The position numbers and the translations under genes are program-made. Positions 35,252 to 62,995 of a stretch of 64,000 nt of DNA are shown piece after piece. Every line of letters starts with the position of its first letter. Within the stretch, counting starts at the first letter, position 1. Origin of the DNA: Alphaproteobacteria bacterium. Lineage in GTDB: Bacteria; Pseudomonadota; Alphaproteobacteria; UBA2966. A model generated the notes under the pieces. It was not told the DNA's origin. It saw only the letters and a list, made by a program, of their open reading frames with translations, and ran no database searches. The DNA is taken from positions 15,477-79,476 of the forward strand of contig JABIFY010000092.1 of assembly GCA_018650465.1 (NCBI GenBank). Reading direction: 5' to 3'.

Positions 35252-35352
35252 GCAACAAGTATCACGCAGGCGCGATATCTGCGACAATATACCACGTCGT
35301 TGCCGGGGTCGTTTTCATTTTCAATAGATCGGTCTGATCAAAAGAGGCCGAC

Positions 35353-36641: not shown

Positions 36642-37055
36642 ATGAAAATCCATATACATCAAATCTCCGTTGAGTGGGGCGATTGTGACCCTGCCGGCAT
36701 TGTATTTTATCCGAACTATTACCGCTGGATGGACGAAGCAACCTTTCATTTGTTTGACAGTGCAGGTTACGGTTGGACGGAAATTCGAGAAAAATTTGGC
36801 CCCCCCGGATTACCTTTGGTAGCCACACATGCGGAATATCGCATTCCAGGCTTTTTTGGTGACAAAATGAGTATCGAAGTCGGCGTTTCCGAATGGGGAA
36901 CCAAATCACTAACTGTGTCCCACCGCTTTATGAAAGACGGCAAGCTGGCAGTTGAAGGTTGGGAAAAGCGCATCTGGAGCGAGGGTGATCCGGGGGCCGG
37001 CAAAAAAATTGTAACGGCTCCCATCCCCGAAGAAGTGAAGGTCGCGCTGAGTTAA
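36642..37055 (+). CDS. 4HBT-fold acyl-CoA thioesterase (YbgC-like)
   Basis: Catalytic-region motif WGDCDPAGIVFYPNY (DxxGxV). Confidence 0.7.
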   Translation: MKIHIHQISVEWGDCDPAGIVFYPNYYRWMDEATFHLFDSAGYGWTEIREKFGPPGLPLVATHAEYRIPGFFGDKMSIEVGVSEWGTKSLTVSHRFMKDGKLAVEGWEKRIWSEGDPGAGKKIVTAPIPEEVKVALS

Positions 37056-37084
37056 ACCGGATCATTGAATCAAGGACAGGAATT

Positions 37085-40084: not shown

Positions 40085-41565
40085 TGGAACTAAGTACTGT
40101 TCGCCCGATTACCCTTTTGATTGCAGCCATGGGCGGCGAAGGTGGTGGTGTGTTAACCAGCTGGATCGTCAACGCCGCGAGAAGCTGCGGTTTGCCGGTT
40201 CAAGCAACCTCCATCCCCGGAGTGGCCCAGCGCACAGGTGCAACCACATATTATATAGAAATTTGGCCAGAGGTCTTGTCTGTGGGGGCCACAAAACCGG
40301 TGCTGGCATTGGCCCCGGCCATTGGTGAAATAGATATTCTGGCGGCAACAGAATATGTTGAAACGGGTCGCATGATCGAAGCAGGCTATGTCACGCCTGA
40401 TCGCACGACCTTGATTGCGTCAAATCATCGTGTTTTCACTACGCATGAAAAACTGGCGATGGGGGATGGTCGTGCAGATGTCGCGCCGATAAAAAAAGCC
40501 ATTAAAGAGCGCGCGAAAAGAGCCGTTGTCGTCGATATGCGCGAAGCCTCAAGCAAAAGTGGCGCGGTGATCAATGCCGTTATGCTGGGGGCCATATGCG
40601 GTGCCGGTGTCTTGCCAATTACTAGAAATGTTTTTGAAGATGGCATTCAGGCTGAAGGCAAGGCTGTTGAAGCAAACCTGCGGGGCTTTAAAGCCGGACT
40701 TGACGCAGCCACAACCCGCGCAAATTCCGATGAAGTTACTGAGGCTTCGGTCGCCGTCCATTCTGCGCTGTCGCATGCGATCAGCAATGATTTTCCTCTG
40801 GCGGCGCATCAAACCCTGATACATGCGACTACTCGACTGATTGATTATCAGGATATCGCTTATGCGACAGCCTATCTCGAAAAACTGAAGCCTTTCGCGC
40901 AAGGTGATCAGGAACTTTTAGTCAGTGTCGGCCGAAATCTCGCCGTCCGGATGGCCTATGAGGATGTTTACCGTGTTGCCCAGGTGAAAGCCCACCCAGA
41001 CCGCCTGATGCGAATCAGGAAGGAAGCTCGCGCTCAAACCGGTGAGCCAATCAAGGTCAGGGAATTCTTCAAACCGCGACTATCTGAAATCAGTGATGCC
41101 TTGCCCGCAGGGCTGGGGCGTTGGCTTCAATCCCTGGCAGAGCGCAATCCTGGACTTGCGCAAAAATCGTGGCCCATGTTGATCGAAACAACCTCTGTTT
41201 CGGGATATCTGCGAATTCGGGTTTTGTCAGGATTGAGACGCATCCGTCGGTCGACCCTTCGTTTCAAAACAGAAGAACAAGCGATCACGAACTGGTTGGC
41301 GTACGTTGGCAAAGCCATGGAGACAAGTCACAAGGCTGCCATGCAAGTCTCGGAATGTTCCAGTTTGATCAAAGGGTATGGCGATACCCACAAGCGCGGC
41401 GTTAGAAGCTATAGTGCCATCATGAATCAACTCGTTGTGCCTGCCGTTACGGGCGACAAGTTTACTGACCAATTGGCCGCAGATATTTATGCCGCCAGAA
41501 CGGCAGCTTTGGCTGATCCGGAAGGCAAAAACCTGATGGCAGTTCTGGAAGGTATGGCGGCATGA
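40084..41565 (+). CDS. iorB: Indolepyruvate/2-oxoacid:ferredoxin oxidoreductase beta subunit
   Basis: ITLLIAAMGGEGGGVL...ATSIPGVAQRTGATTYYIE matches the IorB / PFOR-gamma fold. Its ATG overlaps the iorA stop (TGATG). Confidence 0.75.
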   Translation: MELSTVRPITLLIAAMGGEGGGVLTSWIVNAARSCGLPVQATSIPGVAQRTGATTYYIEIWPEVLSVGATKPVLALAPAIGEIDILAATEYVETGRMIEAGYVTPDRTTLIASNHRVFTTHEKLAMGDGRADVAPIKKAIKERAKRAVVVDMREASSKSGAVINAVMLGAICGAGVLPITRNVFEDGIQAEGKAVEANLRGFKAGLDAATTRANSDEVTEASVAVHSALSHAISNDFPLAAHQTLIHATTRLIDYQDIAYATAYLEKLKPFAQGDQELLVSVGRNLAVRMAYEDVYRVAQVKAHPDRLMRIRKEARAQTGEPIKVREFFKPRLSEISDALPAGLGRWLQSLAERNPGLAQKSWPMLIETTSVSGYLRIRVLSGLRRIRRSTLRFKTEEQAITNWLAYVGKAMETSHKAAMQVSECSSLIKGYGDTHKRGVRSYSAIMNQLVVPAVTGDKFTDQLAADIYAARTAALADPEGKNLMAVLEGMAA

Positions 41566-46006: not shown

Positions 46007-46139
46007 TCTTGATCTGTTGAAAAACCCAGATATTCCATACATTTATTGTTGATGTCGGTTTATTTGCTGGTCCCGTTGTCAGCAGGTGGTTTTTCGTGGG
46101 AAAACACAGGTTCTGAATATAGAAGAGGATGCAGGTAGT

Positions 46140-47567
46140 ATGCTGATCAACGGAAATTGGACCGAAGCCCCTGAAGGCGCTTTGTTTGACGTTATTAACC
46201 CGGCAAATGGAGACGTGGTGGGGCAAGTGCCGGATGGTAATGCAGCATCTGCCCGATCCGCCATTGAAGCGGCTGCGGCTGCCTTTGGTTCCTGGTCAAA
46301 AACTACTGCACATGCCAGATCTGCAATCCTTTACAAGGCCTGGCAACTGATGCTGGAGCGCAAGGAGGACCTGGCCCGGACGATGACGCTGGAGCAGGGA
46401 AAACCGCTGCGTGCGGCGACGACCGAAGTTCAGTATGCAGCTGATTTTCTGCTTTGGTTCGCCGAAGAAGCAAAGCGAAGCTATGGGGAAACCATCCCCT
46501 CGGCCCGGGCCGATCAACGCTTTATTGTATCTCATTATCCGGTTGGTGTGGTTGCCGCGATTACGCCGTGGAATTACCCCGTTTCCATGATTACCCGAAA
46601 AGTGGGCCCGGCGTTGGCTGCGGGCTGTACCGTTGTATTAAAACCGGCTGAGGCCACACCGCTGTGTGCAATCAAGGTTTTCGAAATATTGACAGAAGCT
46701 GGCCTGCCTGACGGTGTCATCAACCTTGTAACAACAAGCAATCCAGCACCGGTGGGCGAAGAATTTGTTTCCAACCCCCTGGTGCGGAAACTCACCTTCA
46801 CCGGCTCGACCGCTGTCGGCAAGATGCTGGCTGGCAAAGCTGCCGGCAACATGAAGCGTGTGTCCTGTGAATTGGGCGGCCATGCGCCGTTTCTGGTATT
46901 TGATGACGCTGACCCGGTACACGCGGCCAAGGGCGTGCAGTTGGTGAAATTTCTGAACACCGGCCAGGCTTGCATCAGTCCTAACCGTATATTTGTGCAC
47001 CAGTCCAAAGTCGATGCCTTTGTCGATACCCTGCAATCGCGGGTCGCGAACATGAAGGCGGGCTCAGGCATGGAAGATGGTGTGACCATCGGACCACTTG
47101 TTGATGAGCGCGCCGTTGCCAAGGTTTCTGCCCAGGTCGATGATGCCGTCGCCAAGGGAGCTGAAGTCGTTTGCGGCGGTAATCGGTTGCTTTCCAACGG
47201 ACTGGAAAAAGGATTCTTTTATGCACCAACGGTGCTTAGGGGTGTGACGCCGGACATGTTGATCTACCGCGAGGAAACTTTTGGACCGGTCGCCCCGATC
47301 ATCACCTTTGACGATGATCAGGAAGCGCTGAAAATGGCAAATGATACAAATTATGGCCTCGCGGCTTATGTTTACACACGCGATATCTCACGCGCCATGC
47401 GCATGTTTGAAGCGCTGGAATTTGGCATTATCGGGGTGAACGATATTAACCCCAGCGCCGCATCGGCACCGTTTGGCGGCATGAAGGACAGTGGTCTTGG
47501 CCGCGAGGGCAGTCGTGAAGGTATGGCTGAATATCTTGAAACCAAACTGGGTGGCTTCGCGATTTAG
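46140..47567 (+). CDS. NAD(P)-dependent aldehyde dehydrogenase (succinate-semialdehyde-dehydrogenase-like)
   Basis: MLINGNWTEAP...VINPANGDV N-terminus. ELGGHAP and catalytic Cys (QACISPNR) are present. Confidence 0.8.
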   Translation: MLINGNWTEAPEGALFDVINPANGDVVGQVPDGNAASARSAIEAAAAAFGSWSKTTAHARSAILYKAWQLMLERKEDLARTMTLEQGKPLRAATTEVQYAADFLLWFAEEAKRSYGETIPSARADQRFIVSHYPVGVVAAITPWNYPVSMITRKVGPALAAGCTVVLKPAEATPLCAIKVFEILTEAGLPDGVINLVTTSNPAPVGEEFVSNPLVRKLTFTGSTAVGKMLAGKAAGNMKRVSCELGGHAPFLVFDDADPVHAAKGVQLVKFLNTGQACISPNRIFVHQSKVDAFVDTLQSRVANMKAGSGMEDGVTIGPLVDERAVAKVSAQVDDAVAKGAEVVCGGNRLLSNGLEKGFFYAPTVLRGVTPDMLIYREETFGPVAPIITFDDDQEALKMANDTNYGLAAYVYTRDISRAMRMFEALEFGIIGVNDINPSAASAPFGGMKDSGLGREGSREGMAEYLETKLGGFAI

Positions 47568-49952: not shown

Positions 49953-50825
49953 ATGATTAATACATTGACTGGGAGGGAAGTTCTGTTGCGTTATTTCCTG
50001 CCGGATACGGTTGCTGAGGCGACCGCCGGACTAGCTGAAAAAAATTATCGGATCGTTGCGGGCGGCACGGATTTTTACCCCGCCCTGGCTGATCAGCCTG
50101 TGCGCGACGACGTCATGGATATTTCCGGCCTGCAAGCTTTGCGCGGCATCGCCCGGGAAACCAAACACACCCGCATTGGTGCCCTTGCCACCTGGACAGA
50201 TATTGCCCGGGCGGAGCTGCCAAATAAATTCCGCGGCCTGCAACTGGCGGCGCGTGAAGTGGGGGCTTTGCAAATACAGAATGTGGCGACCGTTGCAGGC
50301 AATCTTTGCAATGCCTCGCCCGCGGCGGACGGCGTGCCGCCCCTGTTGACCCTGAATGCGCAAGTCGAAATCTCCGCTGCGAACGGCCAGCGTGTTTTAC
50401 CGCTGGATCAGTTCATCCTTGGCAACAGGCGCACGGCGCTGGAGCCAAATGAAATGCTGACCGCCATTTTGATCCCGAATGATGCAGAAGCGGCAAACAG
50501 TCATTTTATGAAACTGGGCTCCCGGCAATATCTGGTTATCTCCTACGTCATGGTGGCGACTTTGCTGGAAGCAGACGATTCCGGCATTATCACCCAGGCC
50601 CGGGTTTCGGTTGGCGCCTGTTCCGAGGTGGCGTGCCGTCTTGCCGATCTTGAAGCGGCACTCGTTGGGCAACCCTTGACAACGACCAGTGCTGTCGTGC
50701 GGCCCGACCATCTGTCCATCCTTGCGCCCATCGATGATATTCGGGCGTCGGCTGATTATCGCCTGGCGGCAGCGTTGGAATATACCAGGCGCAGCCTTTC
50801 GGCCTGTACGGAGGGTCTGTTATGA
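49953..50825 (+). CDS. Xanthine-dehydrogenase-family FAD-binding subunit (CoxM/XdhB-like)
   Basis: RIVAGGTDFYP FAD-binding motif and C-terminal CO-dehydrogenase flavoprotein domain. Confidence 0.8.
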   Translation: MINTLTGREVLLRYFLPDTVAEATAGLAEKNYRIVAGGTDFYPALADQPVRDDVMDISGLQALRGIARETKHTRIGALATWTDIARAELPNKFRGLQLAAREVGALQIQNVATVAGNLCNASPAADGVPPLLTLNAQVEISAANGQRVLPLDQFILGNRRTALEPNEMLTAILIPNDAEAANSHFMKLGSRQYLVISYVMVATLLEADDSGIITQARVSVGACSEVACRLADLEAALVGQPLTTTSAVVRPDHLSILAPIDDIRASADYRLAAALEYTRRSLSACTEGLL

Positions 50826-53581
50826 CATCACCTGGTACGAGTGGGTCTGTCGACTTTTCCCTGAACGGAAAACCGGTTTCAGTTTCCGTTGATCCCACGC
50901 GTCGGCTGTCACAAGTGCTGCGCGAAGACCTTGGTCAGACCGGCACCAAAATAGGTTGTAATGCGGGCGACTGCGGGGCCTGTACGGTGTTGGCCGATGG
51001 CCTTTCGGTTTGTGCCTGCATGGTACCTGTCGGGCGGTTGCAGGGTGCGCAAATCCAGACCGTGGAGGGATTGGCTGAAGCGGGCATTCCCAATCGACTG
51101 CAAAAAGCATTTTTGCATTTTGGCGCCGCCCAGTGTGGCATTTGTACGCCGGGTATGTTGATGGCGGCCACCGCATTGCTGGCGGAAAACGCCCGTCCCG
51201 ATGAAGCCCAGGTAAAAGACGCGCTGGGCGGTGTGCTTTGCCGCTGTACAGGATATCGCAAGATCATCCAGGCGGTGATGGCTGCCCATGATTTTGATGC
51301 CGAACCTTTGCGGGCTGAAACCGGCACGGCAGTGGGCACTCGCCTTAACCGGCTTGATGGTGAAGAAAAGGTTCTCGGCACAGATTTGTTTGGTGATGAC
51401 GTTGCTGGACAAGGTGCACTCGTCCTCAAGGTTATTCGCTCACCTTATCATCGGGCGTCATTTTCCTTCGGGGATACAGGCGGGTTACTGGTGACAACAC
51501 CTGGCCTGATCAAAATCCTGACCGCCAGCGATATTCCGGGCAGAAATTTACATGGCGTTATTCCGGATACTGTCGATCAACCAGTCTTTGCCGTGGCTGA
51601 AACCCGTTTCAAGGGCGAGGCGATTGCTGCCGTGGTTGGGGATGCCGACGCCGTGGACAAGTTTGATGTGTCGGACTTTCCCGTGACCTGGACGGAACGA
51701 CCCGCGTACCTGACGCCGGAAAAGGCTTTGGCTGACAATGCACCCCTGATACATGCCAACCGGCCCGGAAATATCCTGATGAACGGCATCGTGCAGCGCG
51801 GTGATCTGGCGGCCGGCTTCGCGCACAAAGACGCCACGATTGCCGAAGGCGATTTCATCACCGGCTTTGTTGAGCACGGTTATATTGAACCGGAAGCGGG
51901 CCTGGCCCAACGTGTGGGCGACCGACTTGAAATGCATGTTTGCACCCAGTCGCCCTATATGGATCGCGATGACACGGCAGCTATTCTTGGTATCGCCAAA
52001 GAAGATGTGCGCATCATACCGACGGCGGTTGGCGGTGGCTTTGGCAGCAAGCTTGATCTCTCGGTCCAGCCCTATATCGCACTGGCCGCCTGGTTGCTGG
52101 ATCGCCCTGTGCGCATGACCTACAGCCGCCAGGAAACCATGATGTCGACAACCAAACGACATCCTTCAGCCATCAAGGCCAGAATCTCTGCAGACAAACA
52201 GGGCAAGCTGTTATCCATGGATTTCAACGGCGTGTTCAACACCGGGGCCTATGCTTCGTGGGGACCGACGGTTGGCAATCGGGTGCCGGTACATGCCTCG
52301 GGTCCTTATATATATGATGCCTATCGCGCCCGCAGTCAGGCGGTGCATACCCATTGCGTGCCGTCCGGTGCCTTCCGGGGATTTGGTGTGCCGCAATCTT
52401 CCATTGTGCAGGAAACCCTGTTTGATGAACTGGCGGACAAGCTGGCCATTGATCGGCTGGACTTTCGTTTGCGCAACGCCCTGGTGAACGGTGCAACGAC
52501 GGTTTGTGGCCAGGTCTTCAGCGAAGGTGTGGGCATCAAGGATTGCCTGCAAAGTCTGAAACCCCATTGGGACCGGGCCTTGTCTGAAGCTGATGGTTTC
52601 AATGCCGCATCAGATGGCAGCTTGCGACGCGGTGTGGGTGTGGCGGGCATGTGGTACGGCTGTGGCAACACGTCGCTGCCCAATCCGTCGACCATCAAGG
52701 TTGCCATTCGCAATGATGGCCAGGTGGTTCTGTTCCAGGGTGCTGTGGATGTGGGGCAGGGGGCCAACACCGTTATCACACAAATCTGTGCTGATGCCGC
52801 AGGCCTGGACATCCTCAATTTTTCTCTTGTCTATGGTGATACCGATCTAACGGCGGACGCGGGTAAAACCTCAGCCTCACGCCAAACCTTTATCAGTGGC
52901 AAGGCGTCATACCTCGCGGGCCAGGATTTGCGCAAAAAAATCCTGCGTATGGTCAATGCCAGTGAAGATGCGCGCCTCGCCATTAATGGCAGCAAAATTA
53001 CCGCCATCGATACAGCCGGGCGAAATGATATCGATCTGGCTGCCTTGCCGGCGGATGAAGATGGATTTGTCTTTACTGGTGAAGGAACCTTTGATCCACC
53101 TACCGTGGCCCTCGATGAAAATGGCCAGGGTGAACCCTATGCGGTTTTTGGATATGGCGCACATATGATGGAACTGGAAGTCGATACCCGCCTGGGCACG
53201 GTACGCTTGATCAAGCTGACGGCCGCCCATGATGTGGGCAAAGCCATTAACCCAACCCTGATTGAAGGCCAGATCGAAGGCGGTGCAGCCCAGGGACTGG
53301 GCCTCGCTCTGATGGAAGAATTTGTGCCGGGCCGCACCGAAAATCTGCACGATTATTTGATTCCGACCATTGGCGATGTGCCCGAGGTGGAATCGATCCT
53401 TGTTGAAGTGCCCAACGCACATGGTCCTTACGGGGCCAAAGGCATAGGTGAACAAGTTCTGATCCCGACTGCGCCAGCCATCCTCAATGCCATCCGACAT
53501 GCCACGGGTGCGGTTTTACGGGATATGCCCGCAACGCCAGAAAAAGTGCGCAATGCAGTTTTGCGGGCGAAAGGGAATTAG
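50822..53581 (+). CDS. Xanthine-dehydrogenase-family fused [2Fe-2S] + molybdopterin-binding subunit
   Basis: N-terminal plant-type and second 2Fe-2S Cys motifs (CNAGDCGACTV; CGICTPG). Large aldehyde-oxidase/XDH Mo-binding body. 4-nt overlap with the FAD subunit. Confidence 0.8.
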   Translation: MTSPGTSGSVDFSLNGKPVSVSVDPTRRLSQVLREDLGQTGTKIGCNAGDCGACTVLADGLSVCACMVPVGRLQGAQIQTVEGLAEAGIPNRLQKAFLHFGAAQCGICTPGMLMAATALLAENARPDEAQVKDALGGVLCRCTGYRKIIQAVMAAHDFDAEPLRAETGTAVGTRLNRLDGEEKVLGTDLFGDDVAGQGALVLKVIRSPYHRASFSFGDTGGLLVTTPGLIKILTASDIPGRNLHGVIPDTVDQPVFAVAETRFKGEAIAAVVGDADAVDKFDVSDFPVTWTERPAYLTPEKALADNAPLIHANRPGNILMNGIVQRGDLAAGFAHKDATIAEGDFITGFVEHGYIEPEAGLAQRVGDRLEMHVCTQSPYMDRDDTAAILGIAKEDVRIIPTAVGGGFGSKLDLSVQPYIALAAWLLDRPVRMTYSRQETMMSTTKRHPSAIKARISADKQGKLLSMDFNGVFNTGAYASWGPTVGNRVPVHASGPYIYDAYRARSQAVHTHCVPSGAFRGFGVPQSSIVQETLFDELADKLAIDRLDFRLRNALVNGATTVCGQVFSEGVGIKDCLQSLKPHWDRALSEADGFNAASDGSLRRGVGVAGMWYGCGNTSLPNPSTIKVAIRNDGQVVLFQGAVDVGQGANTVITQICADAAGLDILNFSLVYGDTDLTADAGKTSASRQTFISGKASYLAGQDLRKKILRMVNASEDARLAINGSKITAIDTAGRNDIDLAALPADEDGFVFTGEGTFDPPTVALDENGQGEPYAVFGYGAHMMELEVDTRLGTVRLIKLTAAHDVGKAINPTLIEGQIEGGAAQGLGLALMEEFVPGRTENLHDYLIPTIGDVPEVESILVEVPNAHGPYGAKGIGEQVLIPTAPAILNAIRHATGAVLRDMPATPEKVRNAVLRAKGN

Positions 53582-53583
53582 TG

Positions 53584-55080
53584 ATGCCAGATGACAAAGA
53601 AGACCTCGTCGTTTGTGATGCCTGCCCGGTACGTTGTCGCATCAAACAAGGCCGCCCCGGTGCGTGCGATCGATATGCAAATGTTGATGGCCTGCTGACC
53701 CGCGTTGACCCGCTAACCGTGGTTGAACGGGCCGAAACCCACGGCACACCCCTGGTGCCTTTCCTGAAAAATGATCAGGAATGGAGCGGTGATCTGGTGC
53801 AGTCTGAAAACACCTTTGTCACTGCTGTGGGTGCTGGCACCACCTATCCCGACTATAAACCGGCCCCTTTCATAGTCTCCAGCGAGGTGGACGGTGTGGA
53901 TATGGTGACCGTGGTCACAGAAGGCATCTACAGCTACTGCGGCGTCAAGATCAAGGTCGATACAGATCGCCACCTGGGCCATGAAGCCGCCTCAGTACGG
54001 GTCGACGGCGAAGTCGTTGGCCATGTCACGACAGGTGAATACGGATCACAAATGATGTCCCTCGGCGGTGTTGCCCATCTGACCGGCGGCAGTAAAAAAG
54101 AAGGCCGCGTGACCTGTCAGACCCTGATGGATTTGTGCAATTGCAAGCCGGTCAAGCTGACGATTGATGACGGCGTGTCGATCATTGTTGAGGCCGGCAA
54201 GGCCCCGATCATTGATGACGTGACGGAGGAACGCATGCGCGTTGGTTGTGGCTCCGCCGCAATCGGTATGTTCGCCATGCAGTGGCAGCCCCTGGTCGAC
54301 GAAGTCGTTGTGGTAGATGATCACATCACCGGCGTGATGTCAGAACACGAAGCCGGAAAAGTTCTGGATGTACCGCCCACGGGTATTTCCATCAACGGCC
54401 GTCGCTCGACCCCCGGTCGCTATTTCAAGGTCGCCGAACCAGGTACGGGTTGGGGTGGTACAGATATCAGCGATCCCCTGTCGATCCTCAACGACTTTAA
54501 GCCAGCAGATGCCAAACCAGGCACAACCCTGTTGATGGTCTCGACCACCGGCGAACATTATGCTTATTTTGTGCTGGACGATAATCTGAAACCTGTCGAA
54601 GAACCCTTGCCGGATGTCTTGATGGCCTCGGTCGAACGGGTGCGGGAAAATTGTGAACCGGCATTATGTTCTGTGTTGTTCATTGGCGGTGCCGGTGGCT
54701 CGCTTCGGGCAGGCGTTACCGAAAATCCCGTCAAGCTGACCATGTCCGTGAAGGACGCCTTGACCAATGTTACCAGCGGCGGAGCGGAAACCTTTGTCTG
54801 GCCTGGCGGGGGCATTACCTACATGGTCGACGTGACGCGCATGCCTGAAAATTCCTTTGGTTATGTCCCCACACCGGCCATCGTCGCCCCCATCGAATTT
54901 TCCATGCGTCTTGAAGATTACGCGGCCCTGGGTGGCCATATGGAGTCGATTGTGCCTTTGGCCGAGGTGCTAAAGGATCCGAACCTTCGTCCTGTGGAAC
55001 AGGGCGAAAGTTCCTGGCCCATGGAAAAGAGCCAGTATAAATGGCCAGATGAGCAAAAAGACGAGCGCAAAGATGAATAG
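53584..55080 (+). CDS. Cys-rich conserved protein, possible 6-hydroxynicotinate-reductase (Hnr)-like
   Basis: N-terminal CDACPVRCRIKQGRPGACDRY Cys cluster. No other fold recognisable by eye. Starts 3 nt after the Mo-subunit stop. Confidence 0.45.
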   Translation: MPDDKEDLVVCDACPVRCRIKQGRPGACDRYANVDGLLTRVDPLTVVERAETHGTPLVPFLKNDQEWSGDLVQSENTFVTAVGAGTTYPDYKPAPFIVSSEVDGVDMVTVVTEGIYSYCGVKIKVDTDRHLGHEAASVRVDGEVVGHVTTGEYGSQMMSLGGVAHLTGGSKKEGRVTCQTLMDLCNCKPVKLTIDDGVSIIVEAGKAPIIDDVTEERMRVGCGSAAIGMFAMQWQPLVDEVVVVDDHITGVMSEHEAGKVLDVPPTGISINGRRSTPGRYFKVAEPGTGWGGTDISDPLSILNDFKPADAKPGTTLLMVSTTGEHYAYFVLDDNLKPVEEPLPDVLMASVERVRENCEPALCSVLFIGGAGGSLRAGVTENPVKLTMSVKDALTNVTSGGAETFVWPGGGITYMVDVTRMPENSFGYVPTPAIVAPIEFSMRLEDYAALGGHMESIVPLAEVLKDPNLRPVEQGESSWPMEKSQYKWPDEQKDERKDE

Positions 55081-56173
55081 CGCTTTTGCCCGCATTTTGC
55101 CCGACGGCAAACGCCTGCATTTGCAGCAAGGCCCCATTGATCTGGTGATCGATGCAGATGGCGATGAGGCTGAAGTTGCCTTGGCTTTTGAGCAGGCGAT
55201 GCGGGCCTTCGAGCCTGTGTTGACGGATTTGGTAGCGGAATTGGAAGTGTTGCGGAAGGTCCTGGCGCCACACTCCTCTACCGTCATGCGCGGGCTTGAC
55301 CCGCGTACCCACGCCTTCGGGGAACAGGTCTGCCAGAAGGCGAATTTCCTGAGTTCTGCATCATCCTCAAATGACCAGAGTTCTGCGCCTGAAGATAAAT
55401 GCCGTCAAGACGTGGGTACCCGTGTCAAGCACGGGCATGACGGACGTGGGGTGCAGTTTTACGATCCGAATAAATCCAATCCTGTCGCGAACATCATGAC
55501 ATCCGCCGCAGCCAACTTCGCAGCCCACAACGTCAGCCCCATGATCGCCGTCGCCGGGTCCGTCGCCGACTACATCCTGGATAAAATGCTGGCAGGGCGA
55601 ACGCTGAATCGAGTCTACGTCAATAACGGTGGCGATATATCACTGTATCTGAACGACGGCCACAGCTTTGATATCGGTATCGTCGACCGGGTTGATGCAC
55701 CCGAAATTTCCGCCACGGCTCATATCACATCCAATGACACCGTTCGTGGCGTCGCGACCAGCGGCTGGAGAGGACGCAGTTTCTCGCTTGGTGTGGCTGA
55801 CGCGGTAACCGTCCTTGCCCCGACGGCGGCTCTGGCAGACGCTGCCGCAACTCTGATCGCCAATGAAGTTGATCCCGGCCCTTGTTTTGAAATTTCCCGC
55901 ACGCCGGCCCATGACCTGGACCCCGACAGTGACCTCGGCGCACGACTGGTGACAACCGATGTCCAGCCTTTGTCGGCCCGGCAAAAAGACCTGGCCCTGC
56001 AACGCGGTCAGGACCTGGCCCGGACTTTTGTTCGGGACGGTTTGATCACGGCTGCTGCCTTGTCCCTGCAGGGCAGTACGCGCATGGCCGGGGACCTCAA
56101 TCCCAAAATTAGTCTCAATAACAACGTTGCCCCAAACAATCCTGATCCGGAGAAAAAATATGCCCGCGGTTGA
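55073..56173 (+). CDS. Conserved hypothetical protein (C-terminal region possibly UPF0280/ApbE-like)
   Basis: ATG overlaps the upstream stop by 8 nt. Segment PMIAVAGSVADYILDKM...VYVNNGGDISL is weakly reminiscent of UPF0280. Confidence 0.35.
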   Translation: MNSAFARILPDGKRLHLQQGPIDLVIDADGDEAEVALAFEQAMRAFEPVLTDLVAELEVLRKVLAPHSSTVMRGLDPRTHAFGEQVCQKANFLSSASSSNDQSSAPEDKCRQDVGTRVKHGHDGRGVQFYDPNKSNPVANIMTSAAANFAAHNVSPMIAVAGSVADYILDKMLAGRTLNRVYVNNGGDISLYLNDGHSFDIGIVDRVDAPEISATAHITSNDTVRGVATSGWRGRSFSLGVADAVTVLAPTAALADAAATLIANEVDPGPCFEISRTPAHDLDPDSDLGARLVTTDVQPLSARQKDLALQRGQDLARTFVRDGLITAAALSLQGSTRMAGDLNPKISLNNNVAPNNPDPEKKYARG

Positions 56174-56744
56174 ACTCAGAAAACAAATCATATCCGTCGA
56201 GGAAACCTGGCACGAAGGTGGCCCGGTTGCACAAACACCCAACCGCCGGGCCAGTGGCATGATCATCATCAAAAATCCCTTCGCCGGAAAATATGTGGAA
56301 GATATCCAGCCTTTCATTGAAGATCTGAAACCCTTTGGTCTGGCCCTGGCGACTGCTGTGCTGGATGCTCTGGGTGGCGATGGTTCTGCCATTGAAGGTT
56401 ATGGCAAGGGTGCCATCATCGGCGAGGCCGGAGAGCTGGAGCATGGTGCCCTGTGGCATCCCGCCGGTGGTTATGCCATGCGGGCCCTGTTGGATGGCAC
56501 CAAGGCCATTGTTGCCTCAACCAAAAAAGTTGGTGGGGTCGGGGCCCGGCTGGATGTACCGATCACCCATACCAATGCATCTTATGTGCGCAGTCATTTT
56601 GATGCCATGGAAGTGGGCTGCAATGATGCGCCGCGCGCCAACGAGCTGGCCTACATACTGGTCATGAGCACCGGACCCCGCGTCCACAGCCGGTCTGGCG
56701 GTCTGGAAGTAGCCGACGTTAAAGGAGAGGATGGATTAAAATGA
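56160..56744 (+). CDS. Amino-acid-synthesis family (PF06684/DUF1185-like) protein, paralogue 1
   Basis: Shared motifs with the downstream paralogue: NPFAG, GELEH, YVRSHFDAMEV, NDAPRANE. Confidence 0.45.
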   Translation: MPAVELRKQIISVEETWHEGGPVAQTPNRRASGMIIIKNPFAGKYVEDIQPFIEDLKPFGLALATAVLDALGGDGSAIEGYGKGAIIGEAGELEHGALWHPAGGYAMRALLDGTKAIVASTKKVGGVGARLDVPITHTNASYVRSHFDAMEVGCNDAPRANELAYILVMSTGPRVHSRSGGLEVADVKGEDGLK

Positions 56745-57328
56745 CTACTGCAATAATTCGCAAGATCATCACTGTTGTCGACGAAACTCACATTGAAATG
56801 GGCAAGGCCATCTCGCCCGCAACCCGGCGGGCTGCGGCCATCGCCGTCATCGCCAACCCCTTTGCGGGCAGCTATACGGAAGACCTCGATCCTCTGATGG
56901 AAATCGGTGCGGAGCTGGGCGGTATATTGGGCGCGCGCGCCGTTGAGGCTTTGGGGATCACGCCGGAGCAGGCCGAGAGCTATGGCAAAGCGGCCATCGT
57001 TGGTGAAAATGGTGAGTTGGAACATGCAGCTGCAATTTTACATCCCAAACTGGGTGCCCCCTTGCGCAAGGCCGTCGAAAAGGGTGCTGCTCTGGTGCCT
57101 TCTGCCAAGAAGATGGGCGGTCCTGGTACGCCCATGGATGTGCCCCTCGGTCACAAGGAAGCCGCCTATGTGCGCAGCCATTTCGATGCCATGGAAGTGC
57201 GCGTCAATGATGCCCCGCGGGCCAATGAAATTCTGGTCGCCGTTTGTGTCACGGACAGCGGGCGGCCTTTGCCAAGGGTCGGTGGTCTGACCCATGAAGA
57301 TGCCGAAGGCAAAGACGGCTTGCGCTAG
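56741..57328 (+). CDS. Amino-acid-synthesis family (PF06684/DUF1185-like) protein, paralogue 2
   Basis: About 45-50% identical to paralogue 1 over the full length. 4-nt overlap. Confidence 0.45.
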   Translation: MTTAIIRKIITVVDETHIEMGKAISPATRRAAAIAVIANPFAGSYTEDLDPLMEIGAELGGILGARAVEALGITPEQAESYGKAAIVGENGELEHAAAILHPKLGAPLRKAVEKGAALVPSAKKMGGPGTPMDVPLGHKEAAYVRSHFDAMEVRVNDAPRANEILVAVCVTDSGRPLPRVGGLTHEDAEGKDGLR

Positions 57329-57342
57329 GCTGGACCCCGAAT

Positions 57343-58401
57343 ATGCAATTCATCCATAACAGCTGGTACGTGGCAGGTTGGTCGAAAGAGTTCACGCGTG
57401 AGCTAAGCAAAGCCACGATCCTTGGCGAAAACATCGTCTTCTACCGCACTGAAGCCGGCACCGTTACGGCCCTGGAAGATCGTTGTCCGCATAAACTGTT
57501 GCCTTTGTCCGAAGGTCGGTTGATCGGTGATGATTTGCAGTGCGGTTATCACGGCGTGACCTTTGGCTGCGACGGTAAATGTGTGCGGGTGCCGGGCCAA
57601 TCAGTGCTGCCTAAAAGCGCCTGGGTGCGCCACTTCCCCACGTTCGAGCGTCACAATATTGTCTGGATCTGGATGGGTGATGAGGGCAAAGCGGATGAAA
57701 GTCTGGTCTTTGATTTGCCGGAACTTTCCAGTCCTGACTATGCGCCGCACCAGGGCAATCCGCTGCCTTATGCCTCAAACTATCTGAATGTGGCCGACAA
57801 TCTGTGCGACCCGGCCCATGTCAGTTTCGTGCACCCGACAACGCTGGGCAATCCTGAGATGGAGGATTTGCCTATTGATTCCGAAATGACGGGGGATGGC
57901 ACAGTGATTACCTCGCGCTGGACCCGCGATACCCCGCCTGTGGGTGTGTTTCAGGGACTGTCGGGCTTTGGCGTGAATTTCCGGGGCAACGTAGATCGCT
58001 GGCAATATTACATCATGAATGTGCCGTGTGTGGCCGTGATCGATTTTGGCAGTGCTGAGGTCTCGCAAGAAATAACTTATGACCGACGGGCGGAAGGTGT
58101 GCATATATATGCCATTCATTTTCTGACGCCCGTGGACGAGTTCCGCACGATTGATCGTTGGATGCATGTGCGAAATTTTGCTCTGCAGGACAAAGCCGTC
58201 GGTGGTGCCATGAATGATCTTTTTAATGTGGCCTTCGCCGAAGATAAAGTTATCCTCGAGGCGATCCAGATTGAGGAACGCCGCCCCAGATCAGCTGAGC
58301 AAGAACAACGACGGCCCTTGCGCATTGCTATCGACAAGGGATCAAACCTCTATCGTCGTCGTATTGATGAGTTGATCAAACAGGAACAGGTGAATGACTG
58401 A
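57343..58401 (+). CDS. Rieske non-haem iron oxygenase alpha subunit, VanA/GbcA/NdmA family
   Basis: Rieske CPHK...CGYHG, mononuclear-Fe motif DNLCDPAHVSFVH. Colinear with the vanillate O-demethylase oxygenase N-terminus (WYVAG...IVFYR...ALEDRCPH). Confidence 0.75.
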   Translation: MQFIHNSWYVAGWSKEFTRELSKATILGENIVFYRTEAGTVTALEDRCPHKLLPLSEGRLIGDDLQCGYHGVTFGCDGKCVRVPGQSVLPKSAWVRHFPTFERHNIVWIWMGDEGKADESLVFDLPELSSPDYAPHQGNPLPYASNYLNVADNLCDPAHVSFVHPTTLGNPEMEDLPIDSEMTGDGTVITSRWTRDTPPVGVFQGLSGFGVNFRGNVDRWQYYIMNVPCVAVIDFGSAEVSQEITYDRRAEGVHIYAIHFLTPVDEFRTIDRWMHVRNFALQDKAVGGAMNDLFNVAFAEDKVILEAIQIEERRPRSAEQEQRRPLRIAIDKGSNLYRRRIDELIKQEQVND

Positions 58402-58819
58402 AGATCGGAAAGGCTACGCCCTGGACGATCAGGTCGGGTTTATCCTGCGCGAAGTTGGCCAGCGCCACAGCACGATTTTTGCGGGCAAGATGATTGAGCG
58501 CCTCACGCCCACCCAGTTTGCCGCCATGGCCAAGCTGATCGAGGTCGGTGATTGTTCGCAAAATCAACTGGGCCGCCACACAGCGATGGATGTGGCCACG
58601 ATCAAGGGCGTTGTGGATCGTTTGGCCAAGCGCGGATTTGTGGACAGTCATGCCGACGACAAAGACGCCCGCCGCCGTATCGTTTGCCTGACCGATACGG
58701 GTCGCGATGTGGCCTTGCGGGCCATCCAGGTTGCGGGAGACATCACCCGGGAAACATTGAAACCCTTGTCAGAAGCCGGGCAAAAACAGCTGCTGAAGCT
58801 GTTGAGGGAATTACGTTAA
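58394..58819 (+). CDS. MarR family transcriptional regulator
   Basis: Winged-helix segment LTPTQFAAMAKL...QNQLGRHTAMDVATIKGVVDRLAKRGFV...DARRR. Confidence 0.75.
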   Translation: MTEDRKGYALDDQVGFILREVGQRHSTIFAGKMIERLTPTQFAAMAKLIEVGDCSQNQLGRHTAMDVATIKGVVDRLAKRGFVDSHADDKDARRRIVCLTDTGRDVALRAIQVAGDITRETLKPLSEAGQKQLLKLLRELR

Positions 58820-58867
58820 TCGGGCATTCTGGCCCAAATCAAAATAGCATGACAGGGAAGTAATATA

Positions 58868-59974
58868 ATGAAAACACGTGCAGCCATCGCCACCCAGGCC
58901 GGAAAACCGCTTGTTATTGAAGAAGTCGATCTGGACGGACCACAGCCCGGCGAGGTTCTGGTTGAAATCAAGGCGACAGGCGTTTGTCACACGGATGCTT
59001 TCACCCTGTCTGGCGATGATCCGGAAGGGGCCTTTCCGGCGATCCTGGGTCACGAAGGGGCCGGTATTGTGCGGGAAATTGGCAAAGGCGTAACTTCCGT
59101 GGAAGTGGGCGATCATGTGATCCCGCTTTACACGCCCGAGTGCCGGGAATGCGAATACTGCCTCAATCACAAGACCAATCTTTGTCAGTGCATTCGGGAA
59201 ACCCAGGGTGCGGGGGTCATGCCCGATGGCTCCAGCCGCTTTTCCCTGAACGGCAAAAAAATCCTGCATTATATGGGCTGTTCTACCTTTTCGAATTTTA
59301 CCGTGTTGCCGGAAATTGCCGTCGCCAAGGTGCGTAAAGACGCGCCGTTTGAACAAATTTGTTATATCGGTTGCGGTGTCACAACCGGCGTCGGGGCCGT
59401 CGCCCTGGATGCCAAGGTCGAGCCCGGCTCCAACGTCGTGGTCTTTGGCCTCGGCGGCATTGGCCTGAATGTGGTGCAGGGTGCGCGCATGGTGGGGGCC
59501 AACAAGATTATCGGCGTCGATCTGAATGATGGCCGGGTGGAGTTGGCGAAAAAATTCGGCATGACCGACTTCATCAACCCCAGTGAATGCGACAATGTTG
59601 TCGAAGCCATCATGGATATGACCAATGGGGGTGCTGATTATTCCTTCGAATGTATCGGCAATACCATGACCATGCGTCAGGCCCTGGAATGCTGTCACAA
59701 GGGTTGGGGCGAAAGCATCATCATTGGCGTCGCTGGTGCCGGTCAGGAAATTTCCACGCGCCCGTTCCAGCTGGTTACCGGCCGGGTCTGGCGTGGTACA
59801 GCCTTTGGCGGCGCCCGTGGCCGGACTGATGTGCCAAAGATTGTCGACTGGTACATGGACGGCAAAATCAACATCGACGACTTGATCACCCACACCATGC
59901 CGTTGGATGAAATCAACAATGCTTTCGATCTGATGCACAAGGGCGAGTCAATTCGCTCTGTTGTTTTGTATTAG
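58868..59974 (+). CDS. frmA: S-(hydroxymethyl)glutathione dehydrogenase / class III alcohol dehydrogenase
   Basis: Colinear with ADH3 ([50 protein letters not shown]). Confidence 0.85.
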
Positions 59975-60014
59975 GAACGATTATTTTTGGCGACTACTCT
60001 GGGGGGAAAGAACA

Positions 60015-61172
60015 ATGTCTAAACTTGTCATCAAAAATATCGGCCTGGTGCTCAGTGGCGATCTGGATAATCCGGTGTTGGATGCGGACACTATCGCCAC
60101 AGAAGATGGCAAGATCACCGGCATTGGGGCTGAGAAAGACTTTGATCAGGAAGGGGCCACGGTCGTTGATGCCAAAGGCACGACTGTCACCCCCGGTCTG
60201 ATCGACAGCCATGTGCACCCGGTCGCGGGCGACTGGACCCCACGTCAAAGCCAGCTCAACTGGATCGATTCAAGCTTGCATGGTGGCGTCACCACCATGA
60301 TCTCGGCCGGCGAGGTGCACTATCCAGGACGGGCCAAGGATATCGTTGGCCTGAAAGCGCTGGCGATCACGGCGCAGCGAGCCTTTGATAATCTGCGCCC
60401 CTCGGGGGTCAAGGTGCATGCCGGTGCGCCGGTCATTGAACAGGGCATGGTCGAACAGGATTTCAAAGAGTTGGCCGAGGCTGGCGTAAAACTGCTGGGT
60501 GAAATTGGCCTGGGCAGCGTCAAGGCCGGGGCGGAGGCCAAACAGATGGTCACCTGGGCCCGAAAATATGGCATTCAAAGTACCATCCACACCGGTGGCC
60601 CTTCCATTCCAGGCTCTGGCCTGATCGACAAGGACGTGGTGCTGGAAGCTGATGCCGATATCATCGGCCACATCAATGGCGGGCACACGGCTTTGCCTGA
60701 CGACCAGATCACCTGTCTTTGTGAAAGCTGCGGTCGTGGCATCGAAATCGTGCATAACGGCAACGAGCGCTCCGCTCTGCTGGCCCTGAATTGCGCTCGT
60801 GAACTGAAGCAGATGGAACGCGTTATCCTTGGCACGGACGGCCCGGCTGGTTCCGGTGTACAGCCCTTGGGAATTTTGCGTATGGTGTCCATGTTGTCAG
60901 CCCTGGGCCAGGTGCCCGCAGAAATCGCCCTGTGTTTTGCCACCGGCAATACGGCCCGCATGCGTGATCTGAATTGCGGCATTATCGAAGTCGGACGTGA
61001 GGCCGATTTTGTGATTATGGACCGGGCCCAGCATTCTCCGGCGGAAACCATTCTGGAGAGTATCCAGCTTGGTGATCTGCCGGGCGTCGGCATGACCATT
61101 ATTGATGGTGTCATCCGCAGCGAACGCAGCCGCAATACCCCACCCGCCAACACCCTGCCCGAAGTAATCTAG
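60015..61172 (+). CDS. Amidohydrolase-superfamily protein, enamidase-like
   Basis: MSKLVIKNIGLVLSGD N-terminus. Metal-binding HVHPV. Size and layout are consistent with the single-domain amidohydrolase group that includes enamidase. Strong SD (GGGGGGAAAG) upstream. Confidence 0.55.
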   Translation: MSKLVIKNIGLVLSGDLDNPVLDADTIATEDGKITGIGAEKDFDQEGATVVDAKGTTVTPGLIDSHVHPVAGDWTPRQSQLNWIDSSLHGGVTTMISAGEVHYPGRAKDIVGLKALAITAQRAFDNLRPSGVKVHAGAPVIEQGMVEQDFKELAEAGVKLLGEIGLGSVKAGAEAKQMVTWARKYGIQSTIHTGGPSIPGSGLIDKDVVLEADADIIGHINGGHTALPDDQITCLCESCGRGIEIVHNGNERSALLALNCARELKQMERVILGTDGPAGSGVQPLGILRMVSMLSALGQVPAEIALCFATGNTARMRDLNCGIIEVGREADFVIMDRAQHSPAETILESIQLGDLPGVGMTIIDGVIRSERSRNTPPANTLPEVI

Positions 61173-61285
61173 CTATCTGTTATTAAACAATAAATCAAAT
61201 ATCTGGCGACAAGGCTTGAACCGGACCCGTAATCAGGTTTGAATCGTTCAAAATCCCTTTCCTTCGAAACCCACAGGACCCCGTC

Positions 61286-62995
61286 ATGCGTAAACATTTG
61301 ACCCTCAATCTTGCCACCCGCGACGCCAGCAGCAAAACTGTTGAAGGCGAAGACCTGGCCCGTGCCGGGCGCTGGTTGATCGCCCGCACGTTGCTGGACG
61401 AAGGTGCGGCGACCGTTGATCCCCTGTCGCCAGGTAACCCGCTGATTTTTTCTGCCGGTCCGTTTGCAGGCACCAACTTCTCCAATGCCAACCGTTTGTC
61501 TGTAGGCTGCAAAAGCCCGCTGACCGGTGGCATCAAGGAAGCGAACTCTGGTGGTACATTCGCTTACGCCATGGGCCAGAACGAAATGTCCGGCATTACC
61601 TTCTGCGAGGCTTCGGACGATTGGGTTGTCATCCACATCAACAAAGAAGGCGATGTAACTTACGATGATGCCACGCCTTACATGGGCAAAAGCAACTTCG
61701 AAGCCGCCGATATGCTGATCGAAAAATACGGCAAGAAAATCTCCTATGCCCTGTGCGGTCCCGTCGGCGAATACCAGGGCCTGATGTCGGCCATCGCTTT
61801 CCCCGATCCTGAAGGTGGCCCAACCCGCTTTGCCGCCCGTGGTGGCGTGGGCGCCGTGATGGGCAGCAAAAAGGTCAAGGCTGTGATCATCGAACAGATC
61901 AAGATGCCAACCTTTGTGGACCGTAAAAAGGTCATGAGCCACGTCAAGGACTATGGTGCCAAACTGGGCGAGGAAGCCGCTATTCAAACTTTTGCTGATT
62001 ACGGCACCGCCATTGTGGCCGACCTCACCAACAAGATCGGCGGGCTGCCGGTGAACAATTTCAGCAAGGGCCAGCAGGTCAACTCCAAGGAACAAACCTT
62101 CGAGATGGGCGGCACCTTTATTCACGACCTGAACAAATCCCGTGGCGGCGAAACGACCCACGCCTGCATGCCGGGCTGCTTGATCCGTTGCAGCAATAAC
62201 TTTCATGGTGAAGACGGCGAATCCATTACCGCCCCGCTGGAATATGAAACCATCGGCTTGATGGGTACCAACTGTGGTCTGACCCACCCCGACCAGGTGG
62301 CGCGGGTCAACCAGGTGGCCAATGATTTGGGCATCGATACCATCGAAATCGGTTGCACCATCGGCGTACTGATGGAAGCAGGCGAGGGCGAATTTGGTGA
62401 CGAAGCCTTTATGATGCAGGTGCTGGAAGATATCCGCGCTGGCAATGAAAAGGGCAAACTATATGCGCAAGGCACCCAGCGGGTCGGCGAACATTTTAAC
62501 GTCAAACGCATTCCCGCCATCAAGAAACAAGGCATCAGTGCCTATGACCCGCGTGTGATCGAGGTCACAGGTATGAGCATGATGTTAACCGCCCAGGGCG
62601 CGGATCATACGGCCGGAAACATGCCGGGCTATCCTTGCAAAGACAAGACCACCGAAGACCTGATGGCCGTCAGCATGGACAGCCAAATGAACTGCGCCGC
62701 CGCCGACAGCCTCGGCCTGTGCATCTTTGGTCGCTCGGTGACCGAAACCAATTCCCAGCTGATCGTCGATGCCATCAACGCCGCCTTTGGCACCAGCCTG
62801 GAGCCATCCTTCGTGCCGAAACTGGGCACTGCCGCCCTGAAACTGGAAGACGAGTTCAACCGCGCCGCTGGCTTCACCGCAGCCGACGACGAACTGCCTG
62901 ACTTCTTCAACACCGAAGCGCTTGCCCCCACCGGCAAAACCAACCGCCACCAGGTGGGCGACCTGCATACCTTCCGCGAAAACTGGTGGAATTAA
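61286..62995 (+). CDS. Aldehyde:ferredoxin oxidoreductase (AOR) family tungsto/molybdo-pterin enzyme
   Basis: AOR N-terminal domain (LIFSAGPFAGT, SVGCKSPLTGG, RGGVGAVMGSKKVKAVII). 4Fe-4S and pterin region (HACMPGCLIRCSN, LEYETIGLMGTNCGL). Confidence 0.75.
   Translation: MRKHLTLNLATRDASSKTVEGEDLARAGRWLIARTLLDEGAATVDPLSPGNPLIFSAGPFAGTNFSNANRLSVGCKSPLTGGIKEANSGGTFAYAMGQNEMSGITFCEASDDWVVIHINKEGDVTYDDATPYMGKSNFEAADMLIEKYGKKISYALCGPVGEYQGLMSAIAFPDPEGGPTRFAARGGVGAVMGSKKVKAVIIEQIKMPTFVDRKKVMSHVKDYGAKLGEEAAIQTFADYGTAIVADLTNKIGGLPVNNFSKGQQVNSKEQTFEMGGTFIHDLNKSRGGETTHACMPGCLIRCSNNFHGEDGESITAPLEYETIGLMGTNCGLTHPDQVARVNQVANDLGIDTIEIGCTIGVLMEAGEGEFGDEAFMMQVLEDIRAGNEKGKLYAQGTQRVGEHFNVKRIPAIKKQGISAYDPRVIEVTGMSMMLTAQGADHTAGNMPGYPCKDKTTEDLMAVSMDSQMNCAAADSLGLCIFGRSVTETNSQLIVDAINAAFGTSLEPSFVPKLGTAALKLEDEFNRAAGFTAADDELPDFFNTEALAPTGKTNRHQVGDLHTFRENWWN

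Follow-up and report, generated by a model that had tools for sequence, protein, structure and literature searches.

What do two adjacent and related genes of the DUF1185 family do inside a bacterial catabolic operon? The question is raised by a 64,000-nucleotide stretch of DNA from an Alphaproteobacteria bacterium (assembly GCA_018650465.1, contig JABIFY010000092.1; the whole stretch is called the window below), in which the genes, here named A and B, stand side by side. Judged by its gene content, the operon that holds them belongs to the route of nicotinate catabolism through 1,4,5,6-tetrahydro-6-oxonicotinate (THON) and not to amino acid biosynthesis. By sequence comparison A and B are anciently diverged paralogs, B being the ortholog of a protein with a solved structure. 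They may act on a ring-opened product of this pathway.

Two overlapping genes encode full-length DUF1185 proteins

The two genes and the signals that accompany them are given below.

56160-56744, forward strand: gene A, DUF1185/PF06684 protein of 194 amino acids, A-type (the clade that includes BB2672/3BYQ)
56741-57328, forward strand: gene B, DUF1185/PF06684 protein of 195 amino acids, B-type, ortholog of the crystallized SPO0826/2QTP
56741-56744, forward strand: ATGA start/stop overlap of A and B, 4 nt, read from the DNA
56724-56734, forward strand: Shine-Dalgarno-like GGAGAGGATGG located 9 nt before the ATG of B, in the terminal codons of A (conserved ...GEDGL motif)
56149-56153, forward strand: GGAGA, the ribosome-binding site of A, 6 nt before its ATG and still within the 3' end of the UPF0280 gene

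The start of A was set at the ATG at 56160 by alignment of orthologs, which have the consensus MPxxxxRK; the mechanically defined open reading frame (ORF) opens at TTG 56127. Gene A thereby begins within the upstream UPF0280 gene, whose last 14 nt (to 56173) it shares, and the A/B junction reads ...GGA TTA AAA TGA, with the ATG of B at 56741. Both ORFs are intact and free of frameshifts. An earlier note on this DNA had described two adjacent genes that overlap by 4 nt and share about half of their residues, including the NPFAG, GELEH, YVRSHFDAMEV, and NDAPRANE blocks, and had proposed a pairwise alignment as a check. The ATGA at 56741-56744 bears out the overlap, and BLASTP yielded 87 identities over 190 positions (46%) with one gap (E = 2e-48), all four blocks being identical between A and B. 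The similarity is far above chance and is not a matter of low complexity.

The assignment to a DUF1185-like family in the same note was also correct. A and B matched PF06684 (AA_synth, formerly DUF1185) with 221.7 and 249.1 bits, respectively, against a Pfam cut-off of 27 bits, and both alignments spanned profile positions 1-175 of 175; a search of NCBIfam returned no model for either protein. Using phmmer, B matched SPO0826 of Silicibacter/Ruegeria pomeroyi (PDB 2QTP; E = 1.7e-95, ∼80% identity) and BB2672 of Bordetella bronchiseptica (PDB 3BYQ; E = 2.4e-34). A matched BB2672 (E = 9e-56, 48% identity) better than SPO0826 (E = 7e-42). The family is large: the A query retrieved more than 8000 database proteins and the B query more than 564 relatives in species-representative genomes, both figures being lower bounds.

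The earliest structures of DUF1185/PF06684 proteins are those of SPO0826 and BB2672 (Bakolitsa et al. 2010; PMC2954203). The assembly is a hexamer built as a trimer of dimers, each of the two proteins being homohexameric, and SPO0826 alone forms hexamers in solution (PMC2954203). An extensive C-terminal dimer interface is held by Glu90-Arg176 and Glu92-Arg172 salt bridges; a cavity of ∼1000 cubic angstroms is lined by His93, His98, His144, and His174, and the elements listed as lining the cavity at the dimer interface include helix H4, the loop between H4 and beta4, and the segment after beta7 (PMC2954203). This interface is absent from the SPO0826 crystal, which the authors put down to pH and salt (PMC2954203), and only 147 residues are ordered in that structure (2QTP). 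The fold is of the Bacillus-chorismate-mutase/Rid-like type, resembling Rid-family proteins (including RutC) and chorismate mutase.

The pair lies in an operon of the THON route

The THON route is known from Eubacterium barkeri and Azorhizobium caulinodans and converts nicotinate to 6-hydroxynicotinate and then to THON, from which enamidase produces 2-formylglutarate and NH3 on the way to glutarate (PMC9304392). Homologs of its first three enzymes, nicotinate dehydrogenase (Ndh), 6-hydroxynicotinate reductase (Hnr), and enamidase, are encoded in the operon that contains A and B. This operon comprises eleven same-strand genes at 49953-62995 with overlaps or gaps of at most ∼110 nt. The other nine genes, and one aldehyde dehydrogenase gene upstream of them, are as follows.

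49953-50825, forward strand: flavin adenine dinucleotide (FAD)-binding subunit of an XDH-family hydroxylase (domain profiles)
50822-53581, forward strand: fused 2x[2Fe-2S] and molybdopterin subunit of the same hydroxylase, a putative nicotinate dehydrogenase (domain profiles)
53581-55080, forward strand: Hnr homolog of 499 amino acids, 65-68% identical to plasmid genes that carry the annotation 6-hydroxynicotinate reductase
55049-56173, forward strand: UPF0280/ApbE-like protein (NCBIfam NF003322, 324.9 bits) with a roughly 65-residue in-frame insertion
57343-58401, forward strand: Rieske/VanA-like oxygenase, beginning 14 nt after B (Pfam)
58394-58819, forward strand: MarR-family regulator (Pfam)
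58868-59974, forward strand: S-(hydroxymethyl)glutathione dehydrogenase, the glutathione-dependent formaldehyde dehydrogenase (family profiles)
60012-61172, forward strand: enamidase (THON amidohydrolase) ortholog, full-length phmmer match to 2VUN (E = 2.4e-114)
61286-62995, forward strand: aldehyde:ferredoxin oxidoreductase (AOR), the last gene of the operon (family profiles)
46086-47567, forward strand: aldehyde dehydrogenase resembling succinate-semialdehyde dehydrogenase (SSADH) of the GabD/DavD kind, a candidate glutarate-semialdehyde dehydrogenase (TIGR01780, 602.9 bits, just under the cut-off; Pfam Aldedh)

For the 499-residue Hnr homolog, no significant Pfam domain and no PDB relative were found. 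The SSADH-like gene is separated from the operon downstream of it by 2.4 kb and two other genes, and its connection to the A/B pair is conjectural. The "catabolic island" in which the earlier note had placed the pair is real and can be narrowed to a THON-route nicotinate operon; its "unknown function" no longer stands in full, in that a pathway context has been found.

Hnr, UPF0280, A, and B form a conserved module

Species-representative genomes were scanned with B, and the counts of loci given here refer to the best 80 of more than 564 relatives. These B proteins (73-85% identity) came from alpha-, beta-, and gammaproteobacteria. Neighbors were counted by tblastn with the window proteins, greedy-ORF clustering being too noisy (long antisense ORFs, GC-rich loci). 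Most of the 80 loci contained the collinear core FAD subunit-molybdopterin subunit-Hnr-UPF0280-A-B, and Hnr lay on the same strand, ∼1.48 kb upstream of B, in 65 of the 66 loci in which it was present. Enamidase was found in 52 loci, on either strand and at variable distance, the MarR gene in 40, and a Rieske gene near B in about 10, mostly from marine Roseobacter-group bacteria. According to a hidden Markov model search, A stood directly upstream of B in about 65 loci, and UPF0280 was situated between A and B in three more. The ATGA overlap was retained in 50 of the 65 loci with both genes, and the sequence GAGGA(T/C)GG, which encodes the conserved C-terminal (G/K)EDGL motif of A, precedes the ATG of B in orthologous loci. 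Translational coupling, as the earlier note had suggested, is probable.

The gene order in R. pomeroyi is FAD subunit, molybdopterin subunit, Hnr, AbpE_bact (PF27030), A, B, Liv-type ABC transporter, MarR, CoA-transferase, and enamidase, which means that the crystallized SPO0826 has an A-type neighbor. The ABC genes of the nicotinate cluster have been called a putative nicotinate transporter (PMC3511419). On one Neorhizobium plasmid and one Comamonadaceae plasmid, hnr-UPF0280-A-B was kept and the dehydrogenase was of the NicAB type. Neorhizobium plasmid pNCHU2750a (locus L082, 8962-16422) carries hyuA/hyuB genes of the hydantoinase/oxoprolinase family after this module, and the ∼9 kb to each side of it yielded no enamidase; an ATP-dependent lactamase may replace enamidase for THON ring opening in some rhizobia. 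A ferredoxin-NADP reductase gene adjoins the module on Sulfitobacter, Neorhizobium, and Comamonadaceae plasmids.

Each of the two genes also occurs without the other. B lacked an adjacent A in about 12 of the 80 loci: in four, UPF0280 was followed directly by B, and in five, the flanks were free of Hnr and B had as neighbors either enamidase or both ABC transporter genes and enamidase. Lone A-type genes were present in Rhizobium sp. ACO-34A and on Sinorhizobium medicae plasmid pMl5. The pair is not one whose members are never found alone, and an unlinked partner elsewhere in those genomes is possible. The neighbors of the A-type gene on pMl5 (locus L093) are two nucleoside hydrolase genes, an isochorismatase-family (possibly nicotinamidase) gene, MarR, and hyuA. 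An apparent MarR-DUF1185 fusion at this site (ORF 9437-10585), which would have pointed to a function in ligand sensing, was rejected as a frameshift or read-through artifact: the MarR C terminus runs in another frame to a TGA at 9954-9956, and the A-type gene has its own Shine-Dalgarno sequence and an ATG at 10001.

A and B are old paralogs that differ around the dimer cavity

A neighbor-joining tree grouped the A-type proteins with the singleton BB2672 and placed the B-type proteins in a separate clade, both being apart from the relatives of trigonelline (tgn)-type clusters described below. Recent tandem duplication was rejected, given that A clusters with BB2672 and B does not, and that both clades span alpha-, beta-, and gammaproteobacteria. 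The sequences indicate that A and B are paralogs that diverged anciently. Mean pairwise identity across loci was 0.77 for B and 0.65 for A, compared with 0.45 between A and B of the same locus, and the divergences of A and B across loci were correlated (r = 0.70), to which shared phylogeny contributes. The A-type proteins of four betaproteobacterial loci contain an insertion of roughly 15-50 residues at family positions ∼112-116, B being uninterrupted; these insertions are one more sign that evolution has been freer in A than in B.

Residue conservation was computed over 66 A-type and 81 B-type sequences. Positions corresponding to BB2672 residues Arg7, Glu19, Glu90, Glu92, His93, His98, His144, Arg172, and Arg176 were at least 97% conserved in both types, and the position of His174 is occupied by His in A (94%) and by Leu in B (86%). 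Residues invariant in A, B, tgn-type proteins, and other relatives are, in A numbering, R7, K8, N39, P40, K83, E92, E94, H95, R108, R144, H146, D156, P158, E162, R174, and R178. All of these are present in both proteins, and the idea that one paralog is a degenerate pseudo-subunit was accordingly rejected. The fixed A/B differences are L56/G, W99/L, M107/L, I117/L, M169/V, G172/S, and H176/L; in addition, B has an extra Ala after GELEH, and His18 is conserved in A only. When placed on the secondary structure of a predicted model, most of these differences map to the cavity elements named above (helix H4, the H4-beta4 loop, and the stretch that follows beta7). The pattern fits an asymmetric A:B dimer and two distinct specificities equally well.

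Other family members occur in trigonelline-type clusters

A tblastn search of plasmids with A returned 386 records, most of them less than 60% identical. Sampled loci from Leisingera, Rhizobium, Pantoea, and Agrobacterium combined DUF1185 with genes for an alpha/beta hydrolase, a flavin reductase, an LLM oxygenase, and an aldehyde dehydrogenase. The DUF1185 gene lay directly upstream of the hydrolase gene in Leisingera, Rhizobium, and Pantoea, and the two genes overlapped in Leisingera and Pantoea. These plasmid clusters correspond to the gene set of the Acinetobacter baylyi tgn pathway of trigonelline degradation. Their DUF1185 proteins are single-copy, 31-41% identical to A and B, and the clusters are devoid of Hnr. 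A Burkholderia locus contained a VOC protein, DUF1185, an alpha/beta hydrolase, an MhpA-like hydroxylase, NIPSNAP, and SSADH.

In the abstract of Perchat 2018, the succinate-semialdehyde step of the trigonelline pathway is reportedly said to be "assisted by a conserved hypothetical protein." TgnF, a DUF1185 protein, is reported to stimulate the oxidation of succinate semialdehyde that depends on TgnE (PMC7913881). The gene for the homolog HcdD, in the 7-hydroxycoumarin cluster, shares its operon with that for an ene-reductase by which an unsaturated lactone is reduced (PMC7913881).

Possible roles of A and B

The reading that we prefer, tentatively and with less than even confidence, is that A and B, probably joined in an A:B hetero-oligomer, serve as an enzyme or a helper for which the ring-opened enamine/2-formylglutarate product is the substrate. 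The two proteins would be co-translated as the products of the last two genes of the module nicotinate dehydrogenase-Hnr-UPF0280-A-B and would co-assemble, the dimer unit of the trimer-of-dimers hexamer being an A:B pair. Like TgnF, they would act after ring opening on a reactive aldehyde-acid, speeding the conversion of the ring-opened enamine/2-formylglutarate to glutarate semialdehyde by deamination, decarboxylation, or tautomerization. Glutarate semialdehyde would then be handed to an aldehyde dehydrogenase.

Co-assembly is suggested by the construction of the hexamers from dimers and by the fixed A/B differences around the dimer-interface cavity, and the heterodimeric partner pair proposed in the earlier note is plausible. 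The SPO0826 crystal may be devoid of the dimer interface because its A-type partner was missing. The polar residues conserved across the family point to one shared chemistry. A role after ring opening is suggested by the occurrence of tgn-type relatives in clusters without Hnr, since the steps common to the nicotinate and trigonelline routes come after ring hydrolysis. In both routes, an (alkyl)aminomethylene-dicarboxylate gives a 2-formyl-dicarboxylate, which yields a semialdehyde and CO2 and leads to an aldehyde dehydrogenase; the nicotinate route proceeds from 2-(aminomethylene)glutarate to 2-formylglutarate and the trigonelline route from 2-((methylamino)methylene)succinate to 2-formylsuccinate. 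The five loci with B beside enamidase and no Hnr within reach also count for this role. Kitts 1992 is said to describe a decarboxylation step in the Azorhizobium pathway that has no assigned gene.

A more specific version of this idea, which we regard as rather improbable, is that a mixed A/B hexamer supplies the enzyme that is missing from the aerobic THON route, a cofactor-free enamine deaminase of Rid/chorismate-mutase fold and/or 2-formylglutarate decarboxylase that forms glutarate semialdehyde. Its active site would be located at the A:B interface and would consist of the invariant Lys83, His95, His146, Arg174, and Arg178. Applied to 2-formylsuccinate, this chemistry would account for the help that TgnF gives to succinate-semialdehyde dehydrogenase.

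Several observations weigh against a role on the ring-opened product. The tightest synteny of the pair is with Hnr and UPF0280 (the fixed strand and spacing noted above), the link to enamidase being looser, and the retention of hnr-UPF0280-A-B when the dehydrogenase type or the lactam hydrolase changes favors a role tied to Hnr. The enamidase of E. barkeri is bifunctional and itself releases NH3 and 2-formylglutarate (PMC9304392), so that an extra deaminase is not obviously needed. The conserved core of the 80 loci contains no aldehyde dehydrogenase. For HcdD, a stimulating effect could not be shown (PMC7913881). Finally, the homohexamers of SPO0826, the loci with B but no A, and the lone A-type genes indicate that a heteromer is not obligatory for the family.

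The synteny with Hnr raises the alternative that A and B are accessories of this reductase, namely extra subunits, an assembly or stabilizing factor that works with the ApbE-like UPF0280 protein, or an adaptor to the aerobic electron donor, ferredoxin-NADP reductase/ferredoxin. We consider such a role unlikely on balance, though a serious possibility. The hnr-UPF0280-A-B genes hold a rigid collinear order on a single strand and overlap at their stops and starts, the four-gene module persists with a NicAB-type dehydrogenase and with hyuAB in place of enamidase, and the ferredoxin-NADP reductase gene adjoins it on several plasmids; the association of HcdD with a lactone ene-reductase is analogous to Hnr reducing a pyridone (PMC7913881). 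Set against this, the family-invariant residues are common to tgn-type relatives, whose clusters are free of Hnr, B is found beside enamidase without Hnr in at least five loci, and neither A nor B contains conserved cysteines or a known cofactor motif. Hnr of E. barkeri was reportedly purified in active form without such partners (Alhapel 2006), which also counts against an accessory role.

A second alternative, which we judge doubtful, is that A and B form separate homohexamers that catalyze two consecutive steps (e.g., enamine/imine hydrolysis and decarboxylation) or act on two substrates. BB2672 (A-like) and SPO0826 (B-type) are each homohexameric (PMC2954203), A-type and B-type genes are each solitary in some genomes, and the fixed differences line the putative ligand cavity, where they fit differing specificity as well as an asymmetric interface. 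Conversely, the ATGA coupling with its embedded Shine-Dalgarno sequence, which favors equimolar synthesis, was kept in 50 of 65 loci; the divergences of A and B are correlated (a value confounded by shared phylogeny); and SPO0826 alone had no C-terminal dimer interface in the crystal.

That A and B are amino acid biosynthesis or chorismate-mutase-like enzymes, or pH/salt sensors as the structure paper proposed, is very unlikely: the Bacillus-chorismate-mutase-like fold and the Liv-type ABC transporter genes flanking BB2672 and SPO0826 would agree with it (PMC2954203), but the "branched-chain amino acid" ABC genes by SPO0826 are part of the nicotinate cluster, no amino acid biosynthesis genes were seen beside any family member examined, the structure paper itself deems a ligand shared with chorismate mutase unlikely (PMC2954203), and the sole apparent regulator fusion, the MarR-AA_synth ORF of pMl5, is a frameshift artifact. 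The label "amino acid synthesis," used in the earlier note, does match the Pfam name of PF06684, but in all probability that name is a misnomer. Its origin is in the Liv-type ABC genes beside the crystallized orthologs (PMC2954203), and those by SPO0826 belong to the nicotinate cluster; we rejected it as a description of function because all contexts examined were catabolic (nicotinate, tgn-like, aromatic/SSADH, and nicotinamide-related).

Neighboring genes

The Rieske oxygenase gene that follows B and the gene for the glutathione-dependent formaldehyde dehydrogenase belong to one array, which suggests oxidative N-demethylation of trigonelline or another N-methylpyridinium compound to nicotinate and formaldehyde. 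We found no literature on a trigonelline (N-methylpyridinium) demethylase of this kind. Reduced ferredoxin could be fed to Hnr by the AOR (61286-62995) or by an upstream indolepyruvate-type 2-oxoacid:ferredoxin oxidoreductase pair (37949-41565); an AOR gene was also located near the cluster in two other loci (L001 and L045).

E. barkeri Hnr reportedly contains a covalently bound flavin (Alhapel 2006), and UPF0280, being ApbE-like, could be a flavin transferase that matures Hnr. An ortholog of UPF0280 (locus L083, 6377-7246) carries the AbpE_bact domain PF27030, and UPF0280 is a weak match to PDB 2O34. The in-frame insertion of roughly 65 residues in the window protein (55271-55453) is absent from four orthologs, and at its place is an imperfect inverted repeat with arms of 47 nt (55271-55317 and 55407-55453, 81% complementary) and a spacer of 89 nt, for a total of 183 nt or 61 codons. 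The insertion resembles a small palindrome of the mobile or REP-like kind, of which no second copy was found in the window.

Farther upstream, at 31666-37918 and immediately after a FliM gene (30018-31286), is a meta-cleavage set. Its products are FAA-hydrolase-family proteins, an acetaldehyde dehydrogenase, a DmpG-like aldolase, and two dioxygenases, one a catechol 2,3-dioxygenase and the other of the LigB type.

Relation to described systems

Rid proteins deaminate the enamine or imine products of ring or amino acid cleavage, and the Rut set of flavin reductase, LLM oxygenase, alpha/beta hydrolase, and the Rid protein RutC parallels the tgn-like set with DUF1185. No sequence similarity is detectable between the Rid/YjgF and DUF1185 families; DUF1185 adds an N-terminal strand, a beta-hairpin, and a C-terminal segment, and it forms hexamers where Rid/YjgF proteins form trimers.

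A and B have the same conserved Glu/His/Arg network as SPO0826 and BB2672, and the R. pomeroyi operon likewise has the order Ndh-Hnr-UPF0280-A-B. In contrast, the structure paper treats the two proteins as single homohexamers tied to amino acid metabolism, and the adjacent paralog and the nicotinate genes go unmentioned in it (PMC2954203). TgnF belongs to the same Pfam family, has the invariant residues, and is encoded in a pyridine-ring catabolic operon whose ring-opened product ends as a semialdehyde; it is the sole family member with a reported effect, namely help for succinate-semialdehyde dehydrogenase (PMC7913881). A and B nevertheless lie outside the tgn clade, in clades of their own (at the 31-41% identity given above), whereas the tgn-type genes are single-copy and are coupled to an alpha/beta hydrolase and a flavin-dependent two-component oxygenase rather than to Hnr, UPF0280, or enamidase. 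The YVRSHFD block of A and B corresponds to RRSHYLT in tgn-type proteins, and the window operon does not have the tgn gene set, with Ndh, Hnr, UPF0280, and enamidase in place of the hydrolase, flavin reductase, LLM oxygenase, and aldehyde dehydrogenase.

A THON-type proteobacterial nicotinate cluster is known from Azorhizobium caulinodans, Bradyrhizobium, and others (PMC3511419). It has in common with the window Ndh, Hnr, and enamidase homologs, a MarR regulator, and conserved proteins whose function is unknown; the window adds the Rieske oxygenase, the glutathione-dependent formaldehyde dehydrogenase, and the AOR, and it has no Liv-type ABC transporter beside the pair. The pair is an orthologous instance of genes in this already described cluster, with one member having an ortholog of solved structure, and what is added here is the A/B split and the nicotinate context. 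No publication was found that records a conserved A/B pair in the nicotinate operon, translationally coupled and with differences concentrated at the dimer cavity, nor one that records the consistently pyridine-ring catabolic contexts of the family that make its Pfam name misleading.

The finding is useful rather than surprising, the cluster having been described before. PF06684 is a widespread proteobacterial family with a misleading name and two crystal structures dating from 2007-2008. The recognition that SPO0826 is half of a coupled pair, that this pair resides in a THON operon, and that single-copy relatives reside in trigonelline-type operons narrows the candidate reactions to a short, testable list in a pathway whose intermediates are known and can be bought. 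The turnover of nicotinate and trigonelline matters for marine and rhizosphere bacteria. If A and B were indeed the missing deaminase or decarboxylase, this would be the first enzymatic function for the whole DUF1185 family.

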